A stretch of 64,000 bases of DNA from the NCBI RefSeq assembly GCF_003991155.1, contig NZ_CP031293.1. One strand, written 5' to 3'. Position numbers and translations under genes: made by a program. Numbering within the stretch: position 1 is the stretch's first letter; each line of letters starts with the position of its first letter. The DNA is from Escherichia coli. Lineage in GTDB: Bacteria; Pseudomonadota; Gammaproteobacteria; Enterobacterales; Enterobacteriaceae. Shown piece after piece: positions 6,156 through 59,368 of the stretch. Below the pieces are notes generated by a model. That model was given only the letters and a program-made list of their open reading frames with translations. It made no database searches and was not told where the DNA came from.

Positions 6156-6960
6156 TCGCGATACTCAACTCTGCATGTCGCTGGCCGGCTGCCCCGGTAA
6201 CTTCGGCACGCGTTTTCACAATTATCTTTATGAAAAGCTGGGGCTGAATTTCATCTATAAAGCGTTCACCACCCAGGATATTGCAGCGGCGGTGAAAGGG
6301 GTTCGCGCGTTGGGTATTCGCGGTTGCGCTGTGTCGATGCCGTTTAAAGAAAGCTGCATGCCTTTTCTCGACGCGATCGATCCGTCGGCGAAGGTCATTG
6401 ATTCCGTGAATACCATCGTGAATGACGACGGCAGGCTGACCGGGTTTAACACCGACTATATCGCGGTGAAAAGCCTGATTACCCACCACCAGCTCAATAC
6501 CACCACGCGAGTGATGATTCGCGGCAGTGGCGGCATGGGCAAAGCGGTGATTGCCGCCTTTCGCGACGCGGGGTTTACGGATGTTATCATTGCCGCCCGC
6601 AACCGCGAGAGCGGCCCGGCGCTGGCGAAGCAGTATGGGTTTCAGTGGCAACCGCAGCCGGAAGGCATCGCCTGCGACATTCTGGTCAACGTGACGCCCG
6701 TTGGCATGAGCGGCGGTAAAGAGAGCCATGAGCTGGCCTTCAGCGAAGCGATGGTCTCAACGGCAAGCGTCGTTTTTGATGTCGTGGCCTTGCCGCCGGA
6801 AACGCCGCTCATTCGCCTGGCGCAACGGCTTGATAAGCAGACGATTAGCGGTGCGGAGGTGATTGCTTTACAGGCCGTCGAGCAGTTCGCAATGTATACC
6901 GGCGTACGGCCTGATGCGCAACTGATTGCTGAGGCGGCACAATTTGCACGAGAAGGATAA
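6148..6960 (+). CDS. Shikimate 5-dehydrogenase-like (AroE/YdiB family) NAD(P)-dependent dehydrogenase, function in this context unknown
   Basis: ORF 6055-6960; preferred start ATG 6148 overlapping sorE stop (ATGATTAA); AroE-like motifs SMPFK and NTDY, glycine-rich GSGGMGKA. Confidence 0.6.
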   Translation: MINRDTQLCMSLAGCPGNFGTRFHNYLYEKLGLNFIYKAFTTQDIAAAVKGVRALGIRGCAVSMPFKESCMPFLDAIDPSAKVIDSVNTIVNDDGRLTGFNTDYIAVKSLITHHQLNTTTRVMIRGSGGMGKAVIAAFRDAGFTDVIIAARNRESGPALAKQYGFQWQPQPEGIACDILVNVTPVGMSGGKESHELAFSEAMVSTASVVFDVVALPPETPLIRLAQRLDKQTISGAEVIALQAVEQFAMYTGVRPDAQLIAEAAQFAREG

Positions 6961-7082
6961 GAAACATCAGCGCCTTGTTTGCCACGCCAGAAGCAATGCG
7001 CAACATCGTGAGCCATGTCAGTAAGCGGTTAAAATCACAGTGGTAGCATGGCTCCCGTGATTTCTTACTAACCGGAGAAGTA

Positions 7083-7772
7083 ATGGAACTGCTTTTATTG
7101 AGTAACTCGACGCTGCCGGGTAAAGCCTGGCTGGAACACGCGCTGCCGCTGATTGCTGAACAGTTGCAGGGTCGCCGTTCAGCGGTATTTATTCCTTTCG
7201 CTGGCGTAACGCAGACCTGGGATGATTACACAGCGAAAACGGCTGCGGTTCTCGCTCCGCTGGGTGTTTCTGTCACCGGTATTCATAGCGTTGTCGATCC
7301 CGTTGCCGCGATTGAAAATGCTGAGATCGTGATTGTCGGCGGCGGGAATACTTTCCAGTTGCTGAAACAGTGCCGCGAGCGCGGGCTGCTGGCACCAATT
7401 ACTGACGTGGTGAAACGTGGCGCGCTGTATATTGGCTGGAGCGCAGGCGCTAACCTTGCTTGCCCAACCATTCGTACCACCAACGATATGCCGATTGTCG
7501 ATCCGCAAGGTTTCGATGCGCTGAATCTGTTCCCGTTGCAAATCAACCCGCACTTCACCAACGCGCTGCCGGAAGGCCATAAAGGTGAAACGCGTGAGCA
7601 GCGTATTCGCGAACTGCTGGTCGTCGCGCCAGAACTCACAATTATTGGTCTACCGGAAGGTAACTGGATCACGGTGAGTAAAGGTCACGCTACGCTGGGT
7701 GGCCCGAACACCACTTATGTGTTTAAGGCTGGTGAAGAAGCGGTGCCGCTGGAAGCGGGTCACCGTTTTTAA
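7083..7772 (+). CDS. pepE: Peptidase E (alpha-aspartyl dipeptidase)
   Basis: 229 aa; [14 protein letters not shown]-terminus; SD GGAGAAG; conserved position next to yjbB. Confidence 0.9.
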
Positions 7773-7777
7773 GTGAA

Positions 7778-7852
7778 TTGCCGGATGCATAATCCGGCAT
7801 CTTGTTCATCGTGCCTGATGCGACGCTTTACGCGTCTTATCAGGCCTACAGG
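7778..7852. repeat. REP (repetitive extragenic palindromic) elements
   Basis: gccggatgcataatccggc and gcctgatgcgacgc...atcaggcctaca palindromic units between convergent pepE and yjbB. Confidence 0.7.
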
Positions 7853-7861
7853 GTCACGGTA

Positions 7862-9493
7862 TTAATACTCGTCCCGTCCTTCGTCTTCATCCGGCTGTTC
7901 CAGCACACTGTAAGCCACCGAACAAAACAGCGAGTTCAGACGCTGCATATCTCCCAGTAAGCCTAAATGTAGCGAACTGGTTTCAATGCTTTGCACGTTT
8001 TGCTGATGCAGGCGATCGACGTGAGCATGGGAATAACGGCGATTAAGAATGCGAAAGCGATGCTTGCTGCGGCGCAAACGACGGGCGCTGGTAACATCGC
8101 CAGAGAAGAAAACCGACATTGCCAGTTTTAAATTACTGAGCAATTGCTCATAGAGCGCATCCAGTTCCTTCAAGCCATCAAGCGAAAATGCCCGCCGTGC
8201 TGCCAGCGATTTATCGGCAATTTCGCTCCCCATGCGCTCGACGATATCGGAGGCCTGTTCAAGGTTGAGCGACATTTCGATGATCTCCGCCCAGCGGCGC
8301 GACTCTTCCTCCGCCAGCTCTTCTTTTGGCATCCGCGCCAGATACAGCTTAATGGCGGTATAGAGAACGTTGATATCATCTGCCAGCTTACGCAGCTCTT
8401 TCTCCTGCCGTGGCTCGCCGTGCATCACTTTATTCAGCCCTTCCATCATCTGTTCCATGGCGTCGCCAATGCGCAGGGTTTCGCGCGCGGCGTTCGCCAG
8501 AGCAAGCGTGGGCGTATCCAGCGCGCTGACATCCAGATGTTTGGGTCGTAGCTGGGTATCCAGTTCCGGTTCATCGCGAATAATCGTTTTGCAAAACCGT
8601 GCCATCGGGTCAACAAATGGCAGCATGACCAGGCAGCGTACAAGGTTGTAGAAGACGTGGAAATAGATCACCAGTTCCGCTTTTGGCAGTGGCAACTTCC
8701 CCATTGTCTCTGCCAGCAAATGGACAAACGGCAGGATAATCAGGCTACCCACCAGCTTAAACAGCAGGCTACCCAGCGCGACACGGCGGGCTGCGGCATT
8801 GGCGGCACTGTTGTTGAGCATCGCCAGCAGACCGGAACCGAGGTTAGCACCAATCACCAGACAGAGCGCCACGGGGAAGGAGATAATGCCTGCGGCGGTC
8901 AGAGTCGCGGTCAGCAGTACAGCAGCAAGGCTGGAGTAGCTGATAATGGCGAACATCGCGCCAATCAGCGCATCCAGCAGAATATCGCCGGTCAGCGAGG
9001 CAAAGATCACCTGAACGCCGTTTGCCTGGGTGATCGGCGTTACGGCCTGCACAATCAACTCCAGCGCCAGCAAAATCAGCCCAAGACCAATACCGACGCG
9101 GCCCAGTTGCCCGGCGCGTGACTGTTTGCGTCCGAGGAAAAAAATCACGCCGATAAAAATAAGTAACGGTGACAGCCAGGATAAGTCGAAGGTGAGAATA
9201 CGCGCCATTAGCGCCGTCCCGACATCTGCACCCAGCACAATCACCAGAGCCGGTGCGAGGGCTACCAGATCCTGAGCGACAAACGAGGTCACCAGCATGG
9301 TGGTGGCATTACTGCTCTGCACCAGTGCGGTAACGCCTATCCCCGCGCAAAAGGCGAGCGGCTTCTTTTCGACGCTTCGGCTAAGAACAGTACGCAGACG
9401 CGCGCCGAAGACGCGCATTACGCCGGTTCGAACAATATGAGTCCCCCAGACCAGCAGGGCGACGGCAGAAAGCAGGTGAAGCAAAGTTAGCAC
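7862..9493 (-). CDS. yjbB: Na+/phosphate symporter-like inner membrane protein (PhoU-domain containing)
   Basis: 543 aa; GTG start with GGAGAA upstream; multi-TM N-terminal half plus charged PhoU-like C-terminal half. Confidence 0.85.
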   Translation of the reverse strand: MLTLLHLLSAVALLVWGTHIVRTGVMRVFGARLRTVLSRSVEKKPLAFCAGIGVTALVQSSNATTMLVTSFVAQDLVALAPALVIVLGADVGTALMARILTFDLSWLSPLLIFIGVIFFLGRKQSRAGQLGRVGIGLGLILLALELIVQAVTPITQANGVQVIFASLTGDILLDALIGAMFAIISYSSLAAVLLTATLTAAGIISFPVALCLVIGANLGSGLLAMLNNSAANAAARRVALGSLLFKLVGSLIILPFVHLLAETMGKLPLPKAELVIYFHVFYNLVRCLVMLPFVDPMARFCKTIIRDEPELDTQLRPKHLDVSALDTPTLALANAARETLRIGDAMEQMMEGLNKVMHGEPRQEKELRKLADDINVLYTAIKLYLARMPKEELAEEESRRWAEIIEMSLNLEQASDIVERMGSEIADKSLAARRAFSLDGLKELDALYEQLLSNLKLAMSVFFSGDVTSARRLRRSKHRFRILNRRYSHAHVDRLHQQNVQSIETSSLHLGLLGDMQRLNSLFCSVAYSVLEQPDEDEGRDEY

Positions 9494-9663
9494 GGAATCA
9501 GGTTCTCCTTTTTGTTATGCATTTTCCTGTTAAGATTTTTCTAATCACGTTATTTTTATCCAGGCATTTCTCTTGTATGTACTTTCAGTATAAGAGATTT
9601 ATACAAGAAAGCATTTAAAAAGGCATTTATATAAAAATCCACCTGTATCTGTTGCTATTTCTG

Positions 9664-10113
9664 TCACACTTTCCCCTGTCGTTTACACCAGATAATCGTT
9701 GTCACTTTTGTGACCTCTGAGAAGATAAACAACGAAATATTTAAGACCAGATCCTGTGAATGAAAATAATTAAGTAACAACGGTATTACGGAGATTGAAC
9801 AGCTTACGGTAGCAAAACGCATAAACTCCTGAATCGCCAAAAAAGAGAAACTAAATAATTCTTGTCTTAAAAAACATTGCGCAGAAAAGAATAAAGAGAA
9901 CAATAATACTATTTGTAGCGTAACAGTGGCGACTGCATAAGCGTAAAAACCGCCTTCAACACCGATATCCTTAAGTAAAGAAAGTGAATGAACGATATCG
10001 GAATAAAAAGGGATACGACCATTACCAAGCGAGTAGAACAAATATGTGGCTATCGCGATAACATCCATGACACCCCAAAAAAGAAGAATGTATTTTTTAT
10101 ATTGACGTTGCAT
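9664..10113 (-). CDS. Small hydrophobic membrane protein, unknown function (accessory)
   Basis: 149 aa; ATG start with AAAGGA upstream; about 4 predicted TM segments; AT-rich codon usage unlike flanking core genes. Confidence 0.4.
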   Translation of the reverse strand: MQRQYKKYILLFWGVMDVIAIATYLFYSLGNGRIPFYSDIVHSLSLLKDIGVEGGFYAYAVATVTLQIVLLFSLFFSAQCFLRQELFSFSFLAIQEFMRFATVSCSISVIPLLLNYFHSQDLVLNISLFIFSEVTKVTTIIWCKRQGKV

Positions 10114-44571: not shown

Positions 44572-44735
44572 AAAATAACGTCTCAGTACGCTATTTCATG
44601 ATTGCCCGCAAAAATATTCATTAATATTTCTATTGTTTTAACAAAGAAGGCACAAGGCTTTAATTGCAAAGCAAGATCGCCGTCAAAACAAGAGTGTGCA
44701 ATAACCGGTTATAATAATTCCACCCTCACCAAAAT

Positions 44736-45386
44736 ATGGTCCAGAACATCATGTCAGCTTACCTAAAAAAAGCGTTATCGATTCATAGTGATGAATTTCG
44801 CCCATACGGAAACGTAATTTCTGCAATAAATGTAGATTCATTGCTTAAATACCTTAAAGAGGAAATTTCTGTACCTGAGGATCAGGTGGCATATGTCAGA
44901 AGCGATGAGCGCTTAAAGCAATACCCCGCCGTGAGCGACATTCAGCGCCAAATCTACGGTGGAATGCCCGTTCAGGCTGGGTACGTTTGTGGGGTAAATA
45001 CCACCCAGGATGGCTTTGAATATCACCAGGGAAGTGAAGTCATTATCGCCGCCAGCGATTTTTTCCTGTTTTTAGGTAAACGAGAGTTGATGCAGGGTGA
45101 CACGTTTAATGGTGAACGTGCAGAGCCGTTTTTCATTCCGGCAAAATCGGTGATTGAACTTTATAGCACAACGCTACATTACTGCCCTATGAGTATCAAT
45201 GCACAACCTTTTAGTGCAGCGATTATTCTTCTTGATGGAACTAATGAAGATATTGATGGCAAGAATAAACCAACAATATTAAGCAAGCGAAATACCTGGT
45301 TTATCGCCCATGAAAGTTTCACTGAGCATCCTTGCCCATTATTAAAAGGGCCGCATCTTTGCGTGAATGATATTATTCATGGGTGA
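44736..45386 (+). CDS. Cupin-fold protein of unknown function (accessory)
   Basis: 216 aa; cupin-like motifs (G..EYHQGSEV..., ...TTLHYCP...); AT-rich; alternative start ATG 44751 (MSAYLKK); no strong SD. Confidence 0.45.
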   Translation: MVQNIMSAYLKKALSIHSDEFRPYGNVISAINVDSLLKYLKEEISVPEDQVAYVRSDERLKQYPAVSDIQRQIYGGMPVQAGYVCGVNTTQDGFEYHQGSEVIIAASDFFLFLGKRELMQGDTFNGERAEPFFIPAKSVIELYSTTLHYCPMSINAQPFSAAIILLDGTNEDIDGKNKPTILSKRNTWFIAHESFTEHPCPLLKGPHLCVNDIIHG

Positions 45387-45390
45387 AAAT

Positions 45391-45410
45391 GGCGAAGATT
45401 TCTCTTCGCC
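45391..45410. terminator. Bidirectional hairpin terminator between convergent genes
   Basis: GGCGAAGA-tttc-TCTTCGCC perfect stem with T-rich flanks on both strands, between stops at 45386 and 45417. Confidence 0.5.
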
Positions 45411-45416
45411 TGTTCT

Positions 45417-48071
45417 TTACCCGGCAATTACCGCCACGCTGTCTTTTGTTCGCACGCGTGGTGGCATGGTCAGACCGCAGCGATCCCACTCATTCCCCTG
45501 CCATGCACTCGCAAAATAATAATGATTCGCTGCCGATGGGTAGACCACGACCGCCAGTTCATTACGCTTTTTTAGTAAAGACTGTGGCAAGGTGAAACGA
45601 TATTCCGGCCAGCCCTTTTCGGCAATTAACGTATCGTTAAGCCAGATAGCAACGCTTCCCTGCACTTGCGGTAAATAAAGCTCAATATCGTCGGTAATCG
45701 TCTCCAGCGCAAAGCGTAACTGATAATGTCCCGGACCACACCACGTCTCCATCCCCTGCTGCTCCCACCCTTTTGTTACCTCAACGGGTCGGGAAACGTT
45801 ATCAACCAGCAGTTGCCAGTGCTTATCCAGCACCACCTCGTGGCGACTTTCCACTACCTGCAATGAAAAGCAACGGGCCTGCCAGGGCTCGATTTGTAGC
45901 GGATAACTTCCCGTGAGATGCTCTTCCAGCACTGAAACCTCTCCCGTTGCAAGATGCCACTCCGACAACTGCCCACTGAGGCCCGGAAAATGTAGCCAGC
46001 CGTAGAGCGGGGTATCTCCGTCGTTAAATACGCTGACGTAACGCGATGTTTCATCCTGGGTAATTCGCGTCCAGACGGCAGTTTTCCGGGAGGGATAGTC
46101 AACAAAGGGGTGATCGTTTTTCAGCGTGTCGGCTAACGTGCTGCACTGCGGTTGCGCCTCAATCAGTTTTTGCAGCCTTTCGGTGAGAGAACGATCTTCA
46201 CCTTTTTCCTCGCTATATGCCGCAAGCTCGCCGGCGATCAGAAGCTGGCCACCAGCGGCGACAAAGTGCTCCAGTTGGCTCAGCGTGGCGGCTGATTTCA
46301 CCACCTTAACGTCCGCTAACAGAAGCGCAGGGAAATTCATGCCGTTAATGCGCGTTCCATCAGCCTGGAGCAAATTCTCTTCATCAATAAAGAAATATTC
46401 AAATCCCTGAGCGCTGAGTTGTTTTGCCCAATATTCGCCTGACTGCCCTTCGTTGCCATCCACGCCACAGTGCCAGAAAGTCCGTTTGGGATAGAGTACG
46501 CCAACATCAACGTACGGCTCTCCCTGCTCAAGAAATTCGGCAAGGCGACCAGATTCCTGAGCAAACCCAGCGTGGAAGGCGTACCAGGGCTGGAAGTTAA
46601 CGCCCGGCGCAAAATCAAAACGCGGGTTACTTAATACGTCGTCATTTGCCTCGCCATCCGTCAGCCAGAACGCGTGCATCAAAAATTGCCGCGCACCGAG
46701 GAGGTGATGGCGCAATGCCTGCAACCGGATGTCATGCAGTGAAATTTCCCACTGCCCGGCAGCAAAATGTGTGCATGGCTTCACCCGCGCATAATATTGC
46801 TCAACAATGCACCCTTTACGCCCATGAGCGCGCGCCACAGAGTCGCCAACCTTCGCCGCCATCTGCGGCTCGCTATTTCGCGAATCGACAGCCGTAATAT
46901 CCCGCCAGCCATCGAGAGCAAAGTAATCCATAGCAAAATTACACCGGTTATCTTCGGTGATGATTTTACTGGCGAAATTCCAGCTACTAACGTGACCTAA
47001 TACTTCATGACCACTTAGCTGTATTCCCCGCTGGTGCGCCCATTCTGACAACGTACCAAAAAAGGCCTGCATCGCCTGGCTGGAATAACAGGAAAGCAGC
47101 TCACAGCGCCGACGTGCGGTACGACTGCCAATGTCCATAACTAACGACATCAGGTTTTCTGCCAGGCAGTAAGGTGCCTGTTGCAATGCATCAACAAACC
47201 TTTTTTCATACATTAAGGAGGATTTGACCGCGCCAGTATGTTCATTCCATTGCCAGAAACAGGCGTGTGGCTGGTCGAAAAAGAGATACGCCACCGTCTT
47301 ACCAAAATGATCGCCAAAAGCGCGGGCGTAAGGTTCATAGCCGACACGAATAAAATTTTCTGCCGCTTCGGGCATCAGGTAATTAATCATCCGTGAGGTC
47401 AAGCAACGCGCCGCGGCAAAGAGCGTCACTACCGTTTCCGCACCCCAGGGCAGGTCGCTTCCCGTAAAGGTGACCTCAAATTCCTCTGTGGTTGCTTTGG
47501 TGATGCGGGCCAATGAAGAAACATCAACAATTTCATCTGCATTGCACTCCCCTGATGAAGAGGTGGCATACGCTGCGACAATTTCCCATTCATCCCACGC
47601 CGGTTTACCGCCAGCAAAAATCCACTCCATTCCACACTGCTGTAGCGCCTGCGCATCCGCAGAGCGGATCCCGGAAAGGTGACATGTCAGTACATCTGCA
47701 GACCGGCTGGACTGGCTCCAGAAAAGATGGCGCTCACGCAGCTCATCTCTCCCTTCAACGGTCCTTCCCCCGGCGTGCCCGGAAAGCCAGTTGTAATCAT
47801 CGTAGATGCCCATCATCAGCCCAATATTGGCAGCTTTATCAGCCGTGTAGCGACAGGCTGCCAGCCACTCCTCACTGAGATAACTCTCCAGCGGAAGACT
47901 CAGACGTGCGGCTATCTGAAATGAACCATACCCTCCCGCCTGCAGTTGCCTCAGTTGGCTGTCGATCTGCTTTTTGTCCGGAATGGTATGCCAGAACCAG
48001 TAGGTTGCAGGCAGGTGCCATACATCAGGATTTTTAAAGTTTTGGCGTGCCTGTGCTAACGAATCATTCAT
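45417..48071 (-). CDS. Large cytoplasmic hydrolase-like enzyme, probable glycoside hydrolase with C-terminal beta-sandwich; family unassigned (accessory)
   Basis: ORF 45417-48104; preferred start ATG 48071 (MNDSLAQARQNF) preceded by AAGGGGGA and overlapping upstream permease stop; 884 aa; no signal peptide; aromatic-rich N-terminal region. Confidence 0.55.
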   Translation of the reverse strand: MNDSLAQARQNFKNPDVWHLPATYWFWHTIPDKKQIDSQLRQLQAGGYGSFQIAARLSLPLESYLSEEWLAACRYTADKAANIGLMMGIYDDYNWLSGHAGGRTVEGRDELRERHLFWSQSSRSADVLTCHLSGIRSADAQALQQCGMEWIFAGGKPAWDEWEIVAAYATSSSGECNADEIVDVSSLARITKATTEEFEVTFTGSDLPWGAETVVTLFAAARCLTSRMINYLMPEAAENFIRVGYEPYARAFGDHFGKTVAYLFFDQPHACFWQWNEHTGAVKSSLMYEKRFVDALQQAPYCLAENLMSLVMDIGSRTARRRCELLSCYSSQAMQAFFGTLSEWAHQRGIQLSGHEVLGHVSSWNFASKIITEDNRCNFAMDYFALDGWRDITAVDSRNSEPQMAAKVGDSVARAHGRKGCIVEQYYARVKPCTHFAAGQWEISLHDIRLQALRHHLLGARQFLMHAFWLTDGEANDDVLSNPRFDFAPGVNFQPWYAFHAGFAQESGRLAEFLEQGEPYVDVGVLYPKRTFWHCGVDGNEGQSGEYWAKQLSAQGFEYFFIDEENLLQADGTRINGMNFPALLLADVKVVKSAATLSQLEHFVAAGGQLLIAGELAAYSEEKGEDRSLTERLQKLIEAQPQCSTLADTLKNDHPFVDYPSRKTAVWTRITQDETSRYVSVFNDGDTPLYGWLHFPGLSGQLSEWHLATGEVSVLEEHLTGSYPLQIEPWQARCFSLQVVESRHEVVLDKHWQLLVDNVSRPVEVTKGWEQQGMETWCGPGHYQLRFALETITDDIELYLPQVQGSVAIWLNDTLIAEKGWPEYRFTLPQSLLKKRNELAVVVYPSAANHYYFASAWQGNEWDRCGLTMPPRVRTKDSVAVIAG

Positions 48072-49563
48072 GGCTTTCCCCCTTCTTAATCGGCGGAACA
48101 TCACAATGACAAATGTATGTCAAAATGGCATACAGCGCCGCGCCCACCAGCATCGCCACCACTACGCCAATATTTGCTGTCGCAAACACGCTGGTTTTGG
48201 TTTCTGCCGTCAGTAAGAAGCCGACCAGGTGAGCAATCCACGGATCGCCTGAGGTGATGGTTCCCATGCCGATAACCGATGCAACAAACAGCGATAATAA
48301 TGCCGTCCAGCGACCGTTACGCCCGCCAAGCCCCGCGGGCTGCGCCATATCAGTGTTCCAGTGCAAGCGTTTTTGCCGGGCAAAGTCGACAAGCTGGATT
48401 GCGCCCATCGATCCCAATACGACGGATACCGTTGCCAGAAAAGACTGAAAGGTTGCGAGGAACGAGTCAGAAACAAACAATAAGTAGAAGGCACCGAATG
48501 CGATAATGACCGCATTGATAGCAGTGGTGGTTGAACGACTGGCTGGAACGCCCATTGCCAGCAATGCGAGGCCTGAGCTGTAAACACCTGTAATGGCTGC
48601 CGCCAGCAGGGAGATGATGATCACGATTGAAAACGGCACATAGAACCAAAACGGCAGGAACGAGGTTAAGGCCGCAATCGGTTCGGACGCTGCTGCTCCG
48701 CTCAGTTCCGGGTTACTGTCGGCCAGCAGGGCACCTAAAATCAGCAGGATGGAAACCGGAAGCGAAATCCCAAGCGACGTCCAGAAAATCACTTTCCCGG
48801 CAGCGGTTTTGCGCGGCAGGTAACGGGCGAAATCACCGCCATAGTTGAGAAAGCCCAGCCCAACCATCGTCATTGCCATCACCATGCCGCCGATAAACGT
48901 TAAAAATCCGGCATCGGGAGCAGCACCCGCCTGCGACCAGTGAATATGTGGCAGGATCAGGATAATAAAGATGATGCTCATTCCGCCCGTTAACCATGCA
49001 ATATACTTTTCTACCTTCATGATGAGCTGGTGGCCGTAGATGGCAACGGACATAGTCAATACTAAGGTCACCACGAACCAGCCCAACAGGCACCCTAAGG
49101 TAGGGTGACCGTTTTCTGCTGCAAATACGGTTGGCCATAACCGGGCAAAGAGGGCGGCGCCAGTGGTCGAGGACAACGTAATAATGGTGATTTTCCAGCC
49201 CATATTGGAAATATAGGCAAATAAAGTGGGGATCTTATTCCCATGATAACCAAAGGCAAATCGGGTCTGCGTTAAGGTAGGCAGCCCGGTGCGTGGCCCA
49301 CCAACGGCCAGAACCCCCACCAGCGTGCTGGATAAAAAATAGCCCACGACACCGGCAACAATCGCCTGCCAGAGGCTTAACCCCAGTGAGTAAACATAAA
49401 TCCCATAGGTAATACCGAGGATGGATACATTCCATGAAAACCAGATCGGGAAAAGTCCGGCAGGCGAACCATAACGTTCGTTATCACTAACCGGGTTTAC
49501 CCCATTGGTTTCCACCTTCATCGTACCTGAAACATCAGATGGGTTCTGGGCTTGGCTCGTCAT
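48064..49563 (-). CDS. NCS1-type (nucleobase/nucleoside/vitamin cation symporter-like) permease (accessory)
   Basis: ORF 48064-49755; preferred start ATG 49563 (MTSQAQNPSD) preceded by GAGAGGA; 499 aa, about 12 TM; N-terminal P..ER...F..WFS.N motif resembling NCS1 family. Confidence 0.55.
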   Translation of the reverse strand: MTSQAQNPSDVSGTMKVETNGVNPVSDNERYGSPAGLFPIWFSWNVSILGITYGIYVYSLGLSLWQAIVAGVVGYFLSSTLVGVLAVGGPRTGLPTLTQTRFAFGYHGNKIPTLFAYISNMGWKITIITLSSTTGAALFARLWPTVFAAENGHPTLGCLLGWFVVTLVLTMSVAIYGHQLIMKVEKYIAWLTGGMSIIFIILILPHIHWSQAGAAPDAGFLTFIGGMVMAMTMVGLGFLNYGGDFARYLPRKTAAGKVIFWTSLGISLPVSILLILGALLADSNPELSGAAASEPIAALTSFLPFWFYVPFSIVIIISLLAAAITGVYSSGLALLAMGVPASRSTTTAINAVIIAFGAFYLLFVSDSFLATFQSFLATVSVVLGSMGAIQLVDFARQKRLHWNTDMAQPAGLGGRNGRWTALLSLFVASVIGMGTITSGDPWIAHLVGFLLTAETKTSVFATANIGVVVAMLVGAALYAILTYICHCDVPPIKKGESHE

Positions 49564-49564
49564 T

Positions 49565-50782
49565 TTATTTCCTCTCATATTGAGCAAGACGTGATAGTAC
49601 GGCTTCATACTCAGGCATGTTCGATGCGCCTTCCCGCTCGACCGCCAGAGAAGCAAACGCAGAGGCAAATTTTGCTGCACTGAGCAACGGCTGGCCCTGC
49701 GCAATCGCCGCAGCAAACGCACCGTTAAACGCATCCCCCGCACCGGTGGTGTCAATACTTACTGCTTTTAACGCTGGAATATGGGTAAATTGTTCACCGT
49801 CATAAATCAGCGCCCCTTGAGAACCCATCGTAATAATGATGTTTTTTGCCCCCAGGGATTTTATGGTTTGCGCCGCTTCTTTCGCACTCTCGATATCATT
49901 AATCTCGACACCGGACATCAGCGACGCTTCTGTTTCATTCGGTGTCAGATAATCAACATATTGCAGGCATTCTTTTGCCTGGTCAGAATAAGGGGCTGGG
50001 TTAAGGATAGTTTTCACGCCCGACCGATGTGCCATATTTAGTGCCAGCGTGGTTGCTTCAAAGTTATTTTCCAACTGTGTCAAAAATATTTTGGCGTCCG
50101 TCAACTCACCCGCAATACTGGCAACTTCCGCTTCAGTGATATATTGATTGGCGCCAGAATAAATCGCGATCTTGTTTTCACCAGCAGGCTCCGAAACATA
50201 TATTATGGCGCTTCCTGTTTTATGCTCTTCGTCCTGGTAGAGGGTAAAGCTGCGGATATCGGATGAAGAGAGATGATCATGCGCCATCTGGCCGAAATGG
50301 TCGTTGCCAACTTTGCCGACGAAGTGTACCTGGACGGGACATTTGCTGGCTGCCATCGCCTGGTTTGCGCCCTTGCCGCCAGGTCCAATGATGGTATTGC
50401 TGGCAAGAATTGATTCGCCGCTTTTAGGGAAGCGATCAACTTTGGCAATAATATCGACATTAAAAGATCCTAATATACAAACTTTGCTTATCATTATTTT
50501 CCCTTTTTTGTTTGTCATCGAGTTTTTTCGCCAGTTGACCTGATTGAGGAACTTTTCAATAGAGGTACCAACGTTATTAACGGGCTGAGAATGGAAAATC
50601 CGACGCAATATTATTGCTCCGCCGTGACAACGCTCAACACCCCCTTGCTCCGCTAATAAATTTAAATCATTACGGATCGTTTCTTTACTGACAGAGAATA
50701 AGATGGCGAGTTGATTAACCGTAGCCCGCTCATGTTTATTCAAATATGCCAATATTTGACGTTGTCTTTCTTTCCCAAACAT
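49565..50782 (-). CDS. Fusion protein: N-terminal DeoR-type HTH domain + PfkB-family ribokinase-like sugar kinase (accessory)
   Basis: 405 aa; N-terminal RQILAYLNKHERATVNQLAILFSVSKETIRNDL (DeoR HTH); kinase motifs GPGGKGANQA, NPAP, TPNETEA and DTTGAGDAFNGA collinear with RbsK; SD GAGGTGA before ATG 50782. Confidence 0.7.
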   Translation of the reverse strand: MFGKERQRQILAYLNKHERATVNQLAILFSVSKETIRNDLNLLAEQGGVERCHGGAIILRRIFHSQPVNNVGTSIEKFLNQVNWRKNSMTNKKGKIMISKVCILGSFNVDIIAKVDRFPKSGESILASNTIIGPGGKGANQAMAASKCPVQVHFVGKVGNDHFGQMAHDHLSSSDIRSFTLYQDEEHKTGSAIIYVSEPAGENKIAIYSGANQYITEAEVASIAGELTDAKIFLTQLENNFEATTLALNMAHRSGVKTILNPAPYSDQAKECLQYVDYLTPNETEASLMSGVEINDIESAKEAAQTIKSLGAKNIIITMGSQGALIYDGEQFTHIPALKAVSIDTTGAGDAFNGAFAAAIAQGQPLLSAAKFASAFASLAVEREGASNMPEYEAVLSRLAQYERK

Positions 50783-50985
50783 GATTTCACCTCACGTAAC
50801 ATTTATATCTTTTGTAATTTTCTGATTCCATGAATCCTTTCACACTACCATCACGAAAACAAAAACAAACGGGAATTTTTGGAGGAAAGGTTTTTTTATT
50901 CAATGGGATAGTGAGAGGGGAATGTTGTTTTGAAAAAACACTCCCGAAAAATGCGTGGGAAAGCGCTTTCAATCGTAAACGGAAT

Positions 50986-51020
50986 GCAAAAAAAAGCCAG
51001 TCAGTGTGACCTGACTGGCT
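50986..51020 (-). terminator. Rho-independent terminator of rpoC
   Basis: Minus-strand hairpin GCCAGTCAGGTCACACTGACTGGC followed by TTTTTTTT. Confidence 0.8.
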
Positions 51021-51039
51021 TATTTCTTAAGAAGAGCGA

Positions 51040-54000
51040 TTACTCGTTATCAGAACCGCCCAGACCTGCGTTCAGCAGTTCTGCCAGGCTGGCAGATGCG
51101 TCTTCTGCAGTCACCTGCGGTGCAGCCGGAGCTTCACCCGCAGCACGGCGACGCATACGATCCTGGTGGTACGCGTAACCGGTACCTGCCGGGATCAGAC
51201 GACCCACGATAACGTTCTCTTTCAGGCCGCGCAGTTCGTCGCGTTTGCCCGCAACGGCTGCTTCGGTCAGCACGCGAGTGGTCTCCTGGAACGATGCCGC
51301 GGAGATGAAGGACTCGGTTGCCAGAGACGCTTTGGTGATACCCAGCAGATCGCGGGAGTAAGTTGCACCCACTTTGCCGTTCGCTTCCAGTTCGCGGTTT
51401 GCGATCTTGACGCGAGAGTATTCAACCTGTTCACCTTCCAGGAAGTCGGAGCTGCCCGCGTTAACGATGGTAGCTTTACGCAGCATCTGACGAACGATAA
51501 CTTCGATGTGTTTATCGTTAATCTTAACGCCCTGCAGACGGTATACGTCCTGTACTTCGTTAACGATGTAACGAGTCACAGCATGAACACCACGCAGACG
51601 CAGAATGTCGTGCGGCGCTTCCGGACCGTCGGAAATTACGTCACCACGTTCTACACGTTCACCTTCGAACACGTTGAGTTGACGCCATTTCGGAATCATC
51701 TCTTCGTACGGATCGCTACCGTCTACCGGGGTGATAACCAGACGACGTTTACCTTTGGTTTCTTTACCGAAGGAAACGATACCGCTGATTTCAGCCAGGA
51801 TTGCCGGCTCTTTCGGACGACGTGCTTCGAACAGGTCCGCAACGCGCGGCAGACCACCGGTGATGTCCTTGGTACCGCCGGATTCCTGCGGAATACGCGC
51901 CAGGGTGTCACCAGAGCTGATCTGTACGCCATCTTCCAGCTGAACAATCGCTTTACCCGGCAGGAAGTACTGCGCAGGCATATCGGTACCCGGGATCAGA
52001 ACATCGTTACCCTGAGCATCAACGATTTTCAGCGCCGGACGCAGATCTTTACCACCTGCGGTACGTTCTGCGGAATCCAGAACCACCAGCGAAGACAGAC
52101 CGGTCAATTCGTCGGTCTGACGAGTAATGGTCTGGCCGTCGATCATGTCAGTAAAGCGTACAAAACCGCTTACTTCGGTGATAACCGGCATGGTGTGCGG
52201 GTCCCAGTTTGCAACGGTTTCGCCGCCAGCAACCTGTTCGCCATCGCCTTTCGCCAGTACCGCACCGTAAGGTACTTTGTAGCTTTCTTTGGTACGACCG
52301 AATTCGTCGATCAGTTTCAGTTCGGTGTTACGGGAAGTGATAACCAGTTTACCGCTGGAGTTCACAACCGACTTCACGTTGCTGAGCTTGATGCTACCTT
52401 TGTTTTTCACCTGGATGCTGGATTCAGCAGCCGCACGAGATGCCGCACCACCGATGTGGAACGTACGCATGGTCAGCTGTGTACCCGGTTCACCGATGGA
52501 CTGTGCCGCGATAACACCGATTGCTTCACCTTTGTTGATGAGGTGGCCACGCGCCAGGTCACGACCGTAGCAGTGCGCACATACACCAAAGTCGGTGTCA
52601 CAAGATACAACAGAACGTACTTTAACCGCGTCGACAGAGTTCTCTTCCAGCAGGTCACACCACTGTTCGTGCAGCAGCGTGTTGCGCGGAACGAGGATAT
52701 CAGCAGTACCCGGCTTCAGAACGTCTTCAGCAGTTACACGACCCAATACGCGATCGCGCAGCGGCTCTTTAACGTCACCACCCTCGATAACCGGAGTCAT
52801 CATGATACCTTCATGGGTACCACAATCGTCTTCGGTAACCACCAGGTCCTGCGCCACGTCAACCAGACGACGAGTCAGGTAACCGGAGTTCGCAGTTTTC
52901 AGTGCGGTATCCGCCAGACCTTTACGAGCACCGTGGGTGGAGATGAAGTACTGGAGTACGTTCAGACCTTCACGGAAGTTCGCGGTGATTGGCGTTTCGA
53001 TGATGGAGCCATCCGGCTTCGCCATCAGACCACGCATACCAGCAAGCTGACGAATCTGTGCCGCAGAACCACGCGCACCGGAGTCGGCCATCATGTAGAT
53101 GCTGTTGAAGGAAACCTGCTTCTCTTCCTGACCGTCACGGTTAATAACGGTTTCAGTTTGCAGGTTATCCATCATCGCTTTGGATACACGATCGTTCGCC
53201 GCAGCCCAGATATCGATAACTTTGTTGTAGCGTTCGCCCGCAGTTACCAGACCAGACTGGAACTGCTCCTGAATTTCAGCAACTTCTGCTTCTGCCTCGG
53301 AGATGATTTCGTGTTTCTTCTCCGGGATGACCATGTCATCGATACCAACAGATGCACCAGAACGCGCTGCATAGGCGAAGCCGGTGTACATGATCTGGTC
53401 CGCAAAAATAACGGTCGGTTTCAGACCGAGAATGCGGTAGCAGGTGTTCAGCATTTTGGAGATTGCTTTCTTACCCAGCGCCTGGTTGACGATGGAGTAA
53501 GGCAGACCTTTCGGTACAATCATCCACAGAATGGCACGGCCAACGGTCGTATCTTTCAGGCTGGTTTTCGCTACTAATTCACCGTTAGCATCTTTTTCAT
53601 ACTCGGTGATACGCACTTTAACGCGCGCATGCAGAGAAGCCAGACCAGAGCGATACAGACGTTCTGCTTCTTTCGGGCCAGTCAGCACCATGCCTTCGCC
53701 TTTGGCGTTAACACAGTCGCGGGTCATGTAGTACAGACCCAGTACAACGTCCTGAGACGGAACGATGATTGGTTCGCCGTTCGCCGGGGACAGGATGTTG
53801 TTGGTAGACATCATCAGCGCACGCGCTTCCAGCTGGGCTTCCAGCGTCAGCGGTACGTGAACAGCCATCTGGTCACCATCGAAGTCGGCGTTATATGCCG
53901 CACAAACCAGCGGGTGCAGCTGGATAGCTTTACCTTCGATCAGTACCGGTTCAAATGCCTGGATACCCAGACGGTGCAGAGTCGGTGCACGGTTCAGCAG

Positions 54001-55263
54001 TACCGGGTGTTCGCGGATAACTTCGTCCAGGATATCCCAAACGACAGCTTCTTCGCGCTCAACCATTTTCTTCGCAGCTTTAATGGTGGTAGCAAGACCA
54101 CGCAGTTCCAGCTTGCCGTAGATGAACGGTTTGAACAGTTCCAGTGCCATTTTCTTCGGCAGACCGCACTGATGCAGACGCAGGTATGGACCTACGGTGA
54201 TTACAGAACGACCGGAGTAGTCAACACGCTTACCGAGCAGGTTCTGACGGAAACGACCCTGTTTACCTTTGATCATGTCGGCCAAAGATTTCAGAGGACG
54301 CTTGTTAGAACCAGTGATCGCACGACCGCGACGACCGTTATCCAGCAGGGCGTCTACCGCTTCCTGCAGCATACGTTTTTCGTTACGTACGATGATATCT
54401 GGCGCAGCCAGATCCAGCAGACGTTTCAGACGGTTGTTACGGTTAATGACGCGACGATACAGATCGTTCAGGTCAGAAGTCGCGAAACGACCACCATCCA
54501 GCGGAACCAGCGGACGCAGATCTGGCGGCAGTACCGGCAGAACGGTCAGGATCATCCACTCTGGTTTGTTACCAGACTGAACGAACGCTTCCAGCAGTTT
54601 GATACGCTTGGTCAGCTTTTTACGCTTGGTTTCGGAGTTGGTTTCGTTCAGCTCTTCACGCAGCTGTTCGCACTCTTGCTCCAGATCCATGCTCTTCAGC
54701 AGGGCCTGGATTGCTTCCGCACCCATCTTCGCGTCGAATTCGTCACCGAACTCTTCCAGCGCGTCCAGATACTGCTCTTCAGTCAGGATCTGCTGACGCT
54801 CCAGGTTGGTCATACCGCCTTCGATAACCACATAGGATTCGAAGTACAGTACGCGTTCGATATCGCGCAGCGGCATATCGAGCAGCAGGCCGATACGGGA
54901 CGGCAGCGATTTCAGGAACCAGATGTGCGCAGTCGGGGAAGCCAGTTCGATGTGGCCCATACGCTCACGGCGTACTTTAGTCTGGGTCACTTCAACACCG
55001 CACTTCTCACAGATGACGCCACGGTGTTTCAGGCGCTTGTACTTACCGCACAGGCACTCGTAATCTTTTACCGGCCCAAAGATACGGGCGCAGAAAAGGC
55101 CGTCACGTTCTGGTTTGAACGTACGGTAGTTGATGGTTTCCGGCTTTTTAACTTCACCGAAAGACCATGAACGGATCATGTCTGGCGAAGCCAGAGCAAT
55201 TTTGATCGCATCAAACTCTTCGGTTTTAGTCTGCGCTTTCAGAAACTTTAATAAATCTTTCAC
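51040..55263 (-). CDS. rpoC: DNA-directed RNA polymerase subunit beta'
   Basis: 1407 aa; [64 protein letters not shown]. Confidence 0.98.
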
Positions 55264-55339
55264 GGATTTGCTCCCGTCGGAGTTAGCACAATCCGCTGCC
55301 GGGTTTTACCCCGACAGCAGTGACCTGTTTGAGCGAGAA

Positions 55340-58300
55340 TTACTCGTCTTCCAGTTCGATGTTGATACCCAGCGAACGAATCTCTTTCAACAATACGTTG
55401 AAGGATTCTGGCATGCCCGGCTCCATCTGATGGTTGCCGTCCACGATGTTTTTATACATCTTAGTACGACCGTTCACGTCATCAGACTTAACGGTGAGCA
55501 TTTCCTGCAGGGTGTATGCTGCGCCGTATGCTTCCAGCGCCCACACTTCCATCTCCCCGAAACGCTGACCACCGAACTGTGCCTTACCACCCAGCGGCTG
55601 CTGAGTAACCAGGCTGTAAGAACCGGTGGAACGCGCGTGCATCTTGTCGTCGACCAGGTGGTTCAGTTTCAGCATGTACATGTAACCAACGGTTACCGGA
55701 CGCTCGAACTGTTCACCAGTGCGGCCGTCGTACAGGCGGATCTGACCAGAAGTCGGCAGGTCGCCAAGTTTCAGCAGCTCTTTAATTTCTGCTTCTTTCG
55801 CACCGTCGAAGACCGGCGTTGCGATTGGCATACCTTTGCGCAGGTTTTCAGCCAGACGCATAACTTCTTCATCGCTGAAGGTACTCAGGTCAACTTTCTG
55901 ACGAACGTCAGCGCCCAGATCGTACGCACGCTGGATGAATTCGCGCAGTTTCGCGACTTCTTGCTGCTGTTTCAGCATGGCGTTGATCTTGTCGCCGATA
56001 CCTTTCGCAGCCATACCCAGGTGGGTTTCGAGGATCTGACCAATGTTCATACGAGACGGTACGCCCAGCGGGTTCAGTACGATGTCTACCGGCGTACCGT
56101 TTTCATCGTAAGGCATATCTTCGATCGGGTTGATCTTAGAAATTACACCCTTGTTACCATGACGACCTGCCATCTTGTCACCAGGCTGGATACGGCGTTT
56201 AACCGCCAGATATACCTTAACAATCTTCAGCACGCCCGGTGCCAGATCGTCGCCCTGGGTGATTTTGCGGCGTTTCGCTTCGAGTTTCTTCTCGAACTCG
56301 TGTTTCAGTTCGTCATACTGCTCAGCCAGCTGTTCCAGCTGATTTTGTTTCTCTTCGTCGGTCAGGCCCAGCTCCAGCCAGCGATCGCGCGGCAGTTTGT
56401 CGAGCTTCTCAGCTTCAACGCCACCGGCTACCAGCACAGCACGGATACGGCTGAACAGACCCGCTTCGAGGATTTGCAGTTCTTCAGACAGGTCTTTCTT
56501 CGCCTGTTTGAGCTGCATTTCTTCGATTTCCAGCGCACGTTTGTCTTTTTCTACGCCATCGCGAGTAAAGACCTGAACGTCGATAACCGTACCGGATACA
56601 CCGTTTGGTACGCGCAGAGAAGAGTCTTTAACGTCAGACGCTTTCTCACCGAAGATCGCACGCAGCAGTTTTTCTTCTGGGGTCAGCTGAGTTTCACCTT
56701 TCGGCGTTACCTTACCAACCAGAATGTCGCCACCGGTCACTTCCGCACCAATGTAAACGATACCGGATTCATCCAGTTTGGAGAGAGCAGCTTCACCCAC
56801 GTTCGGGATGTCAGCGGTGATCTCTTCCGGCCCCAGCTTGGTATCACGGGACACACACGCCAGTTCCTGAATATGGATGGTGGTGAAACGGTCTTCCTGA
56901 ACAACACGCTCGGATACGAGGATGGAGTCTTCGAAGTTGTAACCATTCCACGGCATGAACGCTACGCGCATGTTCTGACCAAGCGCCAGTTCACCGAGGT
57001 CGGTGGACGGACCGTCTGCCAGCACGTCGCCACGTTCTACCGGTTCACCCAGAGACACACACGGCATCTGGTTGATACAGGTGTTCTGGTTAGAACGGGT
57101 GTACTTGGTCAGGTTGTAGATGTCGATACCTGCTTCACCCGGATACATCTCGTCTTCGTTAACTTTGATAACGATACGGGAAGCATCCACGTACTGAACG
57201 ACACCACCACGTTTAGCAACCGCAGTTACACCGGAGTCAACGGCAACAGCACGTTCCATACCCGTACCAACCAGCGGCTTATCAGCACGCAGAGTCGGAA
57301 CGGCCTGACGTTGCATGTTCGCCCCCATCAATGCACGGTTGGCGTCATCGTGTTCCAGGAACGGGATCAGGGACGCACCGACGGATACCACCTGCTGGGT
57401 GGATACGTCCATGTAGTCAACCTGGTCACGGCTGAACAAGCTGGATTCGCCTTTGCTACGGCAAGTTACCAGGTCTTCTACGAAGTGGCCTTCTTCATCC
57501 AGGTTGGAGTTCGCCTGGGCGATAACGTAGTTGCCTTCTTCGATAGCAGACAGGTAGTGAATTTCGTCAGTTACAACACCGTCGGTCACTTTACGATACG
57601 GAGTCTCAAGGAAGCCGTATTCGTTAGTCTGCGCGTATACAGACAGGGAGTTGATCAGACCGATGTTCGGACCTTCAGGGGTTTCGATTGGACATACGCG
57701 ACCGTAGTGAGTCGGGTGTACGTCTCGAACTTCGAAGCCTGCACGTTCACGGGTCAGACCACCCGGGCCGAGTGCGGAGATACGACGTTTGTGCGTAATC
57801 TCAGACAGCGGGTTGTTCTGGTCCATAAACTGAGACAGCTGGCTGGAACCGAAGAACTCTTTCACTGCTGCGGAAATCGGCTTGGCGTTGATCATATCCT
57901 GAGGCATCAGGGTATCCAGATCGCCCAGAGACAAACGCTCTTTCACCGCACGCTCTACACGTACCAGGCCAACGCGGAACTGGTTTTCCGCCATTTCGCC
58001 AACGGAACGGATACGACGGTTGCCGAGGTGGTCGATATCATCGACTTCGCCTTTACCGTTACGGATATCGATGAGCTTTTTCATAACATCAATGATGTCG
58101 TCTTTGCTCAGGATACCGGAACCTTCGATTTCTTCGCGCAGCAGAGAACGGTTGAACTTCATACGACCAACCGCAGACAGGTCATAGCGGTCTTCGGAGA
58201 AGAACAGGTTCTCGAACAGGCTTTCAGCTGCTTCACGAGTCGGCGGCTCGCCAGGGCGCATCATGCGGTAGATTTCTACCAGTGCGCTCAGACGGTCGTT

Positions 58301-59368
58301 AGTTGGGTCGACACGTAAGGTTTCAGAGATATATGGGCCGTGATCCAGATCGTTGGTGAACAGCGTTTCGATACGCTTGTGACCAGACTGGCTCAGCTTA
58401 GCCAGCAGATCCAGGCTCAGCTCCATGTTCGCAGCACAGATCAGCTCGCCGGTAGACTCATCAATATAGTCTTTAGCAACCACTTTACCTGCGATGTACT
58501 CAACCGGGACTTCGATCAGTTTGACGTCGTCTTTTTCCAGCTGGCGAATGTGGCGCGCAGTGATACGGCGGCCTTTTTCTACGTACACTTTACCGTTAGC
58601 TTCGATGTCAAAAGATGCGGTTTCACCACGCAGGCGTTCCGGCACCAGTTCCATCTGCAGCTTGTTATCACGGATTTCAAAGATAACTTTTTCAAAGAAC
58701 AGGTCGAGGATCTGCTCTGTGGTGTAGTTCAGGGCGCGCAGAATGATGGTCGCAGGCAGTTTACGGCGACGGTCGATACGTACGAACAGGTTGTCCTTCG
58801 GATCGAATTCGAAGTCCAGCCAGGAACCACGGTAAGGGATGATGCGCGCGTTATACAGCACTTTACCCGAAGAGTGGGTTTTACCTTTGTCGGAGTCAAA
58901 GAAGACGCCCGGACTACGGTGCAGCTGGGAAACGATAACACGCTCAGTACCGTTGATAACAAAGGTACCGTTGTCTGTCATGAGCGGAATTTCGCCCATG
59001 TAGACTTCTTGTTCTTTAATGTCTTTTACGGTGCCTTCCGGCGCTTCGCGCTCATAGATCACCAGACGCAGTTTAACGCGCAGCGGTGCGGAATAGGTCA
59101 CGCCACGGATTTGACATTCCTGGACGTCAAACACCGGTTCGCCAAGGCGGTAGCTGACGTATTGCAGCTCGGAATTACCGCTGTAGCTCTGAATCGGGAA
59201 TACGGAACGGAAAGCAGCTTCCAGACCATACTGCCCTTCAGGATCTTGCTCGATAAATTTCTGAAACGAGTCAAGCTGGATAGAAAGGAGATAAGGTACA
59301 TCCAGAACTTGTGGACGTTTACCAAAATCCTTACGAATACGTTTTTTCTCGGTATAGGAGTAAACCAT
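55340..59368 (-). CDS. rpoB: DNA-directed RNA polymerase subunit beta
   Basis: ORF 55340-59401; start ATG 59368 ([20 protein letters not shown]), 1342 aa. Confidence 0.98.

Follow-up and report, generated by a model that had tools for sequence, protein, structure and literature searches.

The DNA stretch considered here, referred to below as the window, comprises 64,000 nucleotides of the Escherichia coli chromosome (contig NZ_CP031293.1), and all positions are counted from its first nucleotide. At 45417–48071 (stop codon included) its minus strand carries a gene for a protein of 884 amino-acid residues, WP_001000014.1, which is described here as a GH106-like glycosidase on the grounds of its open reading frame (ORF), the RefSeq coding sequence (CDS), its homologues and an AlphaFold model. 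The protein falls in a separate clade that branches deeply and is sister to the glycoside hydrolase (GH) family GH106. Its gene is packed together with the genes of a permease and a ribokinase-like protein, and we propose that the enzyme may release ribose from an imported small glycoside.

The ORF begins with an ATG at 48071 and ends with the stop codon at 45417–45419. The plus-strand translation of the same interval is ridden with stops, and the reverse strand gives a single unbroken protein of 884 residues. An earlier account of this DNA (the preliminary description) had the coordinates and the length right, with the strand now corrected to minus. A longer, GTG-initiated version of 895 residues appears in the mechanical list of ORFs. 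The RefSeq CDS is identical to the 884-residue form and is named 'hypothetical protein', and the ATG has a strong Shine-Dalgarno sequence (AAGGGGGA) in front of it. The three peptides quoted in the preliminary description are all found in the translation, NPDVWHLPATYWFWH at residues 14–28, DDYNWLSGH at residues 91–99 and AIWLNDTLIAEKGWPEYRFTLP at about residues 808–829. As also stated there, the protein shows neither a transmembrane segment (the highest Kyte-Doolittle mean over 19 residues is 1.19) nor a signal peptide (the N-terminus is polar), and since both are missing, a cytoplasmic location is predicted.

In a protein database clustered at 90%, 439 homologues are found. The identity is 89% in Salmonella, 66–68% in other Enterobacteria, and 35–47% in Streptomyces, Bifidobacterium, other Actinobacteria and Bacillota. 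With this many homologues, down to 35–47% identity, the ORF is a real gene and not a chance reading frame; it is present at full length in hundreds of genomes. The database names among the clade members seen are either 'hypothetical protein' or generic ('glycoside hydrolase family 2', 'carbohydrate-binding protein'). Shorter relatives also occur, with 608–793 residues, 60–71% coverage of the query and a higher identity of 47–50% (P0049, P0054, P0061, P0062, P0074 and P0109). In Bifidobacterium pullorum (L064) there is only a short matching fragment, with an ADP-ribosylglycohydrolase-like gene just upstream. These relatives and the fragment may be truncated, rearranged or domain-shuffled versions of the protein.

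The gene is part of a four-gene cassette located between thiH and rpoC. Three of the genes lie on the minus strand, in the order of transcription a kinase (49565–50782), a permease (48064–49563) and the glycosidase, and the fourth, for a cupin of the DUF4867 type (44751–45386), lies on the plus strand, convergent with the glycosidase gene. The minus-strand genes are tightly packed: the permease stop and the glycosidase start overlap by 8 nt (ATGAATGA), and the permease and kinase genes are separated by 1 nt. The coupling of the enzyme to a permease and a ribokinase, proposed earlier, is borne out by this arrangement. No other glycan-degrading gene is annotated in the E. coli cassette. In comparison with K-12, the cassette (44576–51036, 6.46 kb) replaces the 1.0-kb yjaZ–sroH segment. 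The homology to K-12 ends 157 bp past thiH and resumes 3 bp past the rpoC stop, with yjaZ and a part of sroH replaced, and thus the rpoC terminator seen here is part of the cassette. The complete cassette is present in 49 of 5,426 complete E. coli genomes. Superficieibacter and an enterobacterial metagenome contig also carry the cassette at the rpoC–thiH site, both without the DUF4867 gene.

Fold, domains and family placement

The AlphaFold model of the 884-residue protein is compact, with a pLDDT of 91.4. The nearest solved folds are GH106 structures, and the fold search returns GH clan-A-type barrels only. Residues 1 to about 515 (46527–48071; minus strand, as for all the domains) form a (β/α)8 catalytic barrel with an inserted β subdomain at about 114–223, as delimited by the secondary structure of the model, the N-terminal match to GH106 and the hhalign alignment. 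The barrel has the PATYWFWH and YDDYNW motifs in common with GH106. It is followed by an α/β domain of the GH42-trimerisation type (residues about 520–645, 46137–46514), recognized in the model and by the fold search; Pfam Glyco_hydro_42M matches the equivalent stretch of the GH106 outgroup introduced below. The next domain (residues about 655–760, 45792–46109) is a β-sandwich in the model and was aligned to GH106 structures. The C-terminal domain (residues about 765–884, 45420–45779) is a galactose-binding-like β-sandwich of the GH2_N type, according to the model and profile matches. The GH106 body plan of barrel, α/β domain, β-sandwich and GH2_N-like C-terminal domain is present in the protein. 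The N-terminal glycoside-hydrolase catalytic domain suspected in the preliminary description corresponds to the barrel, and the C-terminal β-sandwich suspected there is seen in the model and in the matches to GH2 sugar-binding domains.

Searches with the single sequence gave sub-threshold hints of GH106 or nothing, and for this reason profiles were needed. The Pfam model PF17132 (Glyco_hydro_106) matched below threshold (E 0.026, 13.4 bits) over residues 19–120 only, the alpha-L-rhamnosidase model of NCBIfam reached 12 bits against a cut-off of 1300, and the sequence search of the Protein Data Bank (PDB) found nothing. Two alignments were used: A1, with 48 members of the clade, served as the family profile, and A2 contains 25 outgroup proteins of about 1,000 residues. 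The A1 profile finds the solved GH106 enzymes RHA-P (6q2f) with an E value of 6e-24 and BT0986 (5mqm/5mwk) with 5e-16, and the matches run through the start of the N-terminal barrel and the C-terminal domains. All 25 proteins of A2 have a Pfam GH106 match, and the A2 profile finds 6q2f with an E value of 6e-79. The two alignments compared by hhalign match with a probability of 100 and an E value of 2e-108 over 814 columns, at 20% identity.

The same profiles separate the clade from GH106 proper. Among 1.84 billion representative proteins, the A1 profile finds about 44 full-length clusters at 626–1285 bits, and the next full-length proteins (about 1,000 residues) score at most about 315 bits, which leaves a sharp gap. 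Only 3 of the 48 members of A1 reach Pfam GH106 at E ≤ 1e-3. With full-length profile homology to GH106, a score gap around the clade and failure of the family models, the protein represents a distinct, deep-branching sister clade of GH106 that lies outside the current family models. The preliminary description could not place it in a GH family. This holds for the Pfam and NCBIfam thresholds, below which the protein remains, and no longer holds for profiles and the model, which place it beside GH106.

In respect to the solved enzymes BT0986 (5MQM/5MWK) and RHA-P (6Q2F), the protein shares the multi-domain architecture, the (β/α)8 barrel and the N-terminal xWFW and YDE/DxNW motifs, and it aligns with them at the Glu of the catalytic base and at the first Asp that binds the metal. 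It differs by its low identity to them (13–17%), by being about 200 residues shorter, and by the lack of a signal peptide. The genomic setting is also different, with a permease and a ribokinase beside the present gene in place of a pectin or rhamnose utilisation locus. No solved structure within the clade was found by PDB sequence and profile searches, and a literature search returned no study of the family. Neither Pfam nor NCBIfam gives a match to the IUNH N-ribohydrolases or to the ADP-ribosylglycohydrolases, and no such fold is seen. What is new here, as judged from the sequences, is a glycosidase related to GH106 whose predicted specificity differs and whose catabolic context is conserved and points to small molecules.

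Predicted active site

The catalytic apparatus of BT0986 comprises the base E593, the acid E461 and the Ca2+ ligands D458, S459, E538 and E561; in the Ram106B subgroup D458-S459 are replaced by Asp-Glu, E538 by His and E561 by Asp, and the acid E461 is missing (PMC6828813). The equivalent residues were located by chaining two alignments, that of A2 with BT0986 by HMMER and that of A1 with A2 by hhalign, and the codons were verified. The predicted active-site stretch so defined spans 46800–47276 on the minus strand. The Ca2+ ligands D458 and S459 correspond to D266 (47274–47276) and Q267 (47271–47273), and the acid E461 to H269 (47265–47267), all three in the local sequence FFDQPH. The ligand E538 corresponds to H355 (47007–47009, in SGHEV), the ligand E561 to D396 (46884–46886, in TAVDS), and the base E593 to E424 (46800–46802, in CIVEQY).

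Four of these residues (D266, H355, D396 and E424) are invariant in 48/48 clade members of A1, and Q267 and H269 are conserved in 47/48; about 60 positions of A1 are invariant across phyla. In the sequence alignment the general-base Glu of GH106 is kept, as E424, in every member. The acid Glu is not kept, and its position, three residues past the metal-binding Asp, is taken by H269. In the case of the predicted metal site, D266 is retained, H355 and D396 follow the Ram106B pattern, and Q267 stands for S459. The clade thus appears to keep the general base and a metal site of the Ram106B type, with its own D-Q-P-H signature at the classical acid position. The recommendation of the preliminary description to look for catalytic residues on an alignment has in this way yielded a candidate base and candidate metal ligands, with a histidine at the place of the acid.

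The Ram106B enzymes (from Thermotoga, Caldicellulosiruptor and Thermoclostridium; PMC6828813) are the closest in this respect, sharing the His for E538, the Asp for E561 and the base. They have Asp-Glu at the first two ligand positions, matched by the DEPG motif of the A2 outgroup, in contrast to D-Q-P-H in the clade, and the profile-level identity is about 20%. The Ram106B enzymes need a divalent metal, with a preference for Co2+ or Ni2+, and among the p-nitrophenyl (pNP) substrates tested they are active only on pNP-alpha-L-rhamnoside (PMC6828813). From the Ram106B-type active centre we infer a metal-dependent, inverting glycosidase.

Neighbouring genes in E. coli and across phyla

The kinase encoded at 49565–50782 (minus strand, 405 residues, annotated as a ribokinase) is a fusion of a DeoR-type helix-turn-helix (HTH) region with a ribokinase-like PfkB domain. 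It scores 313.5 bits against TIGR02152, which passes the cut-off of 299.65, the solved structures that match it best are nearly all of ribokinases, and the motifs for ribose binding and catalysis (NxD, GGKGANQ, E, GAGD) are kept. The neighbouring kinases of Bifidobacterium and Streptomyces also match ribokinase best (248 and 231 bits, respectively), with the next family below 100 bits.

A DeoR-HTH::PfkB protein of Salmonella, RikA (STM3547, 404 residues), is a proven ribokinase that is made from an internal Met90 under laboratory conditions (PMC13432705). The kinase of the window resembles it in size (405 versus 404 residues), in architecture and in the ribokinase signature, and has internal methionines at positions 89 and 97. 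By analogy with the internal start of RikA, the gene may give two products, a long one with regulator and kinase and a short one with the kinase only. The RikA gene adjoins genes for an amidotransferase-like protein, a DMT transporter and a phosphotriesterase, and not NCS1 and GH106-like genes. A possible identity of the published RikA locus with the present cassette was rejected because of these different neighbours.

The permease encoded at 48064–49563 (minus strand, 499 residues) is a transporter of the NCS1 (purine-cytosine permease) type according to the RefSeq annotation and the family hidden Markov model (HMM). The assignment is generic, with no solved relative detectable by sequence, so that no substrate can be deduced from the permease.

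The DUF4867 cupin gene (44751–45386, plus strand) is annotated within the cassette only among Escherichia (the window, L010 and L011). A GC-rich, terminator-like hairpin found by a hairpin scan (45391–45410) separates it from the convergent glycosidase gene. The E. coli DUF4867 protein keeps the H/E/H metal ligands of SqvB (9GYY), and a published, unproven idea is that DUF4867 proteins act as isomerases of sugar rings or anomers (PMC11968277). In the slot 3' of the glycosidase gene, DUF4867 in Escherichia is matched by an RbsD/FucU-family mutarotase/pyranase in 14 actinobacterial loci (for example, L036, 11718–12164, and L030, 12700–13143). Together with one locus in which the RbsD/FucU-family gene lies upstream, this makes direct adjacency in 15/56 loci, all actinobacterial. 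The two proteins look like a non-orthologous replacement of each other, which fits the isomerase idea of PMC11968277.

On the other side, the operon upstream region (50783–51036, minus strand) consists of the rpoC terminator hairpin (50994–51021) followed by about 210 bp of an AT-rich leader/promoter region. Beyond it the window contains long plus-strand ORFs at 51166–53577, 53629–55170 and 55130–58318 (803, 513 and 1,062 residues), antisense to long minus-strand ORFs, one of which is rpoC (51040–55263). They are most likely stop-poor frames opposite highly expressed genes, and not genes.

The neighbourhood of the glycosidase gene was examined in one genome per species for 100,044 species, which gave 57 loci, of which 56 hold the gene. 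The counts were obtained from tblastn seeds, as longest-ORF calling gave spurious antisense ORFs at high-GC loci. In 41/56 loci the gene immediately upstream, on the same strand, is of the NCS1 type; a PfkB gene is found within 5 kb in 23/56, and a LacI-type regulator gene in 27/56. Isochorismatase-like genes are found at 10/56 loci (directly adjacent in 5), and genes for a PotD-type ABC transporter and an ADP-ribosylglycohydrolase at 7/56 and 6/56, respectively. This synteny spans Gammaproteobacteria, Actinobacteria and Bacillota.

The gene order varies with the lineage. In Bifidobacterium and Streptomyces it is PfkB–LacI–NCS1–glycosidase; the LacI regulator of the former matches RbsR best and that of the latter CytR and RbsR, all below the cut-offs. 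The enterobacterial metagenome contig has rpoC–DeoR::PfkB–NCS1–glycosidase, and Propionimicrobium has NCS1–glycosidase. In Sulfobacillus (L009, 604–8462), of the Bacillota, the order is GntR–NCS1–glycosidase–isochorismatase–ADP_ribosyl_GH–PfkB, and other Bacillota loci (L022, L028, L029 and L048) have the same order, with GntR not always present. The Bacillota set of permease, PfkB kinase and ADP-ribosylglycohydrolase resembles the uncharacterised yegTUV and STM4065–4067 clusters of enterobacteria. Two tandem NCS1 genes, at about 6700–9960, lie directly upstream of the glycosidase gene in three loci (L033, L049 and L059, Mycetocola) and in one of Succinivibrionaceae (L019).

The 14 loci without NCS1 use other importers: Rhizobium and a Chloroflexi genome have ABC transporters of the PotD type, and Rhodoglobus and a Bifidobacteriaceae genome have sugar ABC transporters of the CUT1 type. 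In Rhizobium (R. lusitanum, L042, 5991–19605; also L043, L044, L047, L051, L055 and L058) the glycosidase gene overlaps by 4 nt with a gene for a Mo-hydroxylase::cytochrome c protein of 1,312 residues upstream, and by 4 nt with an MGH1/GH63-like glycosidase gene downstream. A gene for a 2Fe-2S subunit is present in the operon, and some loci continue with a PotD-type ABC transporter and an isochorismatase-like amidase. The Rhizobium locus looks like a fuller pathway in which the aglycone is also degraded. Genes of rhamnose or fucose catabolism (isomerase, FGGY kinase, aldolase) do not recur among the neighbour clusters.

Proposed function and its alternatives

We propose, with a probability of about 0.5, that the 884-residue protein is a metal-dependent cytoplasmic exo-glycosidase of the GH106 sister clade that releases ribose from an imported small glycoside. 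A release of ribose is probable because the NCS1 gene adjoins in three phyla, often along with the gene of a ribose kinase. NCS1 carriers take small nucleobase-like solutes. The carrier, the isochorismatase-family amidases of Bacillota, Streptomyces and Rhizobium, and the Mo-hydroxylase::cytochrome c of Rhizobium point to an aglycone that is probably a nucleobase-like compound or some other N-heterocycle. The riboside or nucleoside substrates named in the preliminary description fit this conserved neighbourhood.

According to this proposal, the coupled NCS1 permease would import a small glycoside with such an aglycone, and the glycosidase, in the middle of a catabolic module of three genes, would split off the sugar, most likely D-ribose. 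In the predicted active site, E424 would be the general base that activates water, and a divalent metal, coordinated by D266, H355 and D396, would bind the cis-diol of the sugar. With H269 at the classical GH106 acid position, the reaction would be a single-displacement (inverting), metal-dependent hydrolysis. The tight link to a pyranase/mutarotase gene hints at a pyranose as the first product; its ring or anomeric form would be converted by the RbsD/FucU-type enzyme in Actinobacteria, and possibly by the DUF4867 cupin in Escherichia. The ribokinase would then produce ribose 5-phosphate.

The sugar geometry makes the use of such an active site conceivable. β-D-ribopyranose in the 1C4 chair is the 4-epimer of α-L-lyxopyranose, which is the 5-demethyl analogue of α-L-rhamnose. 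Nucleoside hydrolases and GH106 both rely on a Ca2+ ion that the cis-diol of the sugar chelates, and in the IUNH enzymes the Ca2+ bound to the ribose cis-diol activates water. With the geometry and the use of Ca2+ in common, a rhamnosidase-type site is plausibly adaptable to a riboside. We tentatively suggest, as a narrower and less probable claim than the release of ribose itself, that a riboside hydrolase has evolved on the GH106 fold; its substrate might be a ribopyranoside or an uncommon riboside (N- or O-linked) of an N-heterocycle, resistant to ordinary nucleoside hydrolases.

Functional parallels exist. The IUNH/Rih nucleoside hydrolases and the PsuK/PsuG system likewise provide ribose or ribose 5-phosphate from imported ribosides beside a PfkB kinase and a transporter, but their fold and family are unrelated to the 884-residue protein, which matches none of these families in Pfam or NCBIfam. 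The Rus loci of Bacteroides combine ribokinase genes and a transporter with variable hydrolases, among them unassigned GHs and ADP-ribosylglycohydrolases, which are proposed to free ribose from ribose-containing nutrients not yet known (bioRxiv 10.1101/574913). One of them, RusGH (BT2807), has a weak, cation-dependent activity on pNP-ribofuranoside (bioRxiv 10.1101/574913). Compared by its description, RusGH is a surface lipoprotein of 539 residues with another architecture; it was dropped as a homologue for its size and location and is kept as a functional analogy only. Uptake in Rus is by SusC/D, in contrast to the NCS1 uptake and cytoplasmic hydrolysis proposed here. Nicotinamide or nicotinate riboside was also considered as the substrate and is unsupported speculation: the isochorismatase-like neighbours keep residues consistent with an Asp-Lys-Cys triad, and no nicotinamidase-type metal motif and no NCBIfam nicotinamidase match was found. 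The idea was drawn from these neighbours, from the PotD-type transporters and from the Rhizobium Mo-hydroxylase::cytochrome c protein, which resembles the nicotinate hydroxylase NicB.

Several observations weigh against the release of ribose. The substrates of GH106 enzymes are pyranosides, and ribopyranosides are rare in nature. Activity and substrate are deduced from context for the whole clade. The residue mapping comes from two chained sequence alignments and not from a structural superposition; with His in place of the classical acid E461, and Gln, not Ser or Glu, beside the metal-binding Asp, the mechanism may differ from that of GH106. About 60% of the loci have no kinase gene nearby. 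In Bacillota the kinase has only a weak likeness to ribokinase (112 bits) and is accompanied by an isochorismatase-like amidase as well as an ADP-ribosylglycohydrolase, and the Rhizobium neighbours (Mo-hydroxylase, GH63-like enzyme and PotD-type ABC transporter) differ greatly. These gene sets mean that the pathway may exceed a simple split of a glycoside into ribose and aglycone. The RbsD/FucU-family neighbour scores better with the FucU model (97–120 bits) than with the RbsD model (34 bits), so that an L-fucose-like or D-arabinose-like sugar is possible.

The alternative that survives best, though it is unlikely, is a trimming enzyme that cuts a sugar other than ribose off a glycosylated riboside or a disaccharide nucleoside and leaves the core to the PfkB protein, then a riboside kinase, and to the ADP-ribosylglycohydrolase where present. 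The Bacillota operon order, in which the weakly ribokinase-like PfkB accompanies an ADP-ribosylglycohydrolase, would agree with it, as would the second glycosidase translationally coupled downstream in Rhizobium and the preference of GH106 enzymes for pyranosides over furanosides (PMC6828813). The module of Enterobacteria and Actinobacteria speaks otherwise: it has one hydrolase only, a kinase with the full ribokinase signature and no enzyme able to split a residual riboside. In addition, RbsD/FucU, which is part of the module, is an enzyme family acting on free sugars.

Somewhat less probable still is an alpha-L-rhamnosidase-type or another 6-deoxy-L-hexosidase (for example, an L-fucosidase) whose imported substrates would be small rhamnosides or fucosides. 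Among families and structures, GH106 alpha-L-rhamnosidases are indeed the nearest, the aligned base and metal site are conserved, and the small downstream protein of Actinobacteria resembles the L-fucose mutarotase FucU. However, the recurring partners are the ribokinase-like PfkB kinases, the RbsR/CytR-like LacI regulators and the NCS1 permeases, and no rhamnose or fucose catabolic genes recur beside them. The large score gap to GH106, the changed acid position and the absence of Pfam GH106 detection also set the enzyme apart from a rhamnosidase.

We regard it as improbable that the enzyme hydrolyses oligosaccharides derived from polysaccharides, in the manner of BT0986 on rhamnogalacturonan-II, with the link to the permease and kinase being incidental. 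Characterised GH106 members do act on complex glycans (PMC6828813), and a few loci have CUT1-type sugar ABC transporters in place of NCS1. Against this stand the cytoplasmic location predicted for the protein, the NCS1 gene directly upstream in most loci of three phyla, the small solutes that such carriers take, and the E. coli cassette without other glycan-degrading genes. A catalytically inactive protein, with a binding or regulatory role or encoded by a decaying gene, is very improbable, since the missing classical acid and an activity that for the whole clade is only inferred are outweighed by the invariant positions across phyla (the aligned base and metal ligands among them), the full-length gene in hundreds of genomes and the confident, compact model.

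The release of ribose is thus preferred. The comparison led to no well-characterised family with a known substrate, as the L-rhamnoside substrate of GH106 misfits the genomic context, and a hydrolase-like fold, the GH106-type barrel, is present in the model. The expectation in the preliminary description that this gene is a place for new enzymology was reasonable, with no clade member characterised and the gene co-transcribed with a permease and a ribokinase.

If the proposal is true, it would mean a new activity, and probably a new family or subfamily of the CAZy classification, for a fold so far known only from alpha-L-rhamnosidases, and NCS1 'nucleobase' permeases would be able to feed a cytoplasmic glycosidase. 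The DUF4867 proteins would gain a testable role as isomerases of pentose rings or anomers, and the variable cassette at the rpoC–thiH junction of Enterobacteriaceae would be explained. A small riboside or N-heterocyclic glycoside would be a nutrient of E. coli, Salmonella, Bifidobacterium, Succinivibrionaceae, Streptomyces and acidophilic Bacillota. It would be used by a riboside catabolic pathway not recognised before (NCS1 import, GH106-like hydrolysis, ring conversion by RbsD/FucU or DUF4867, and ribokinase) that occurs in at least three phyla, in bacteria of gut and soil.

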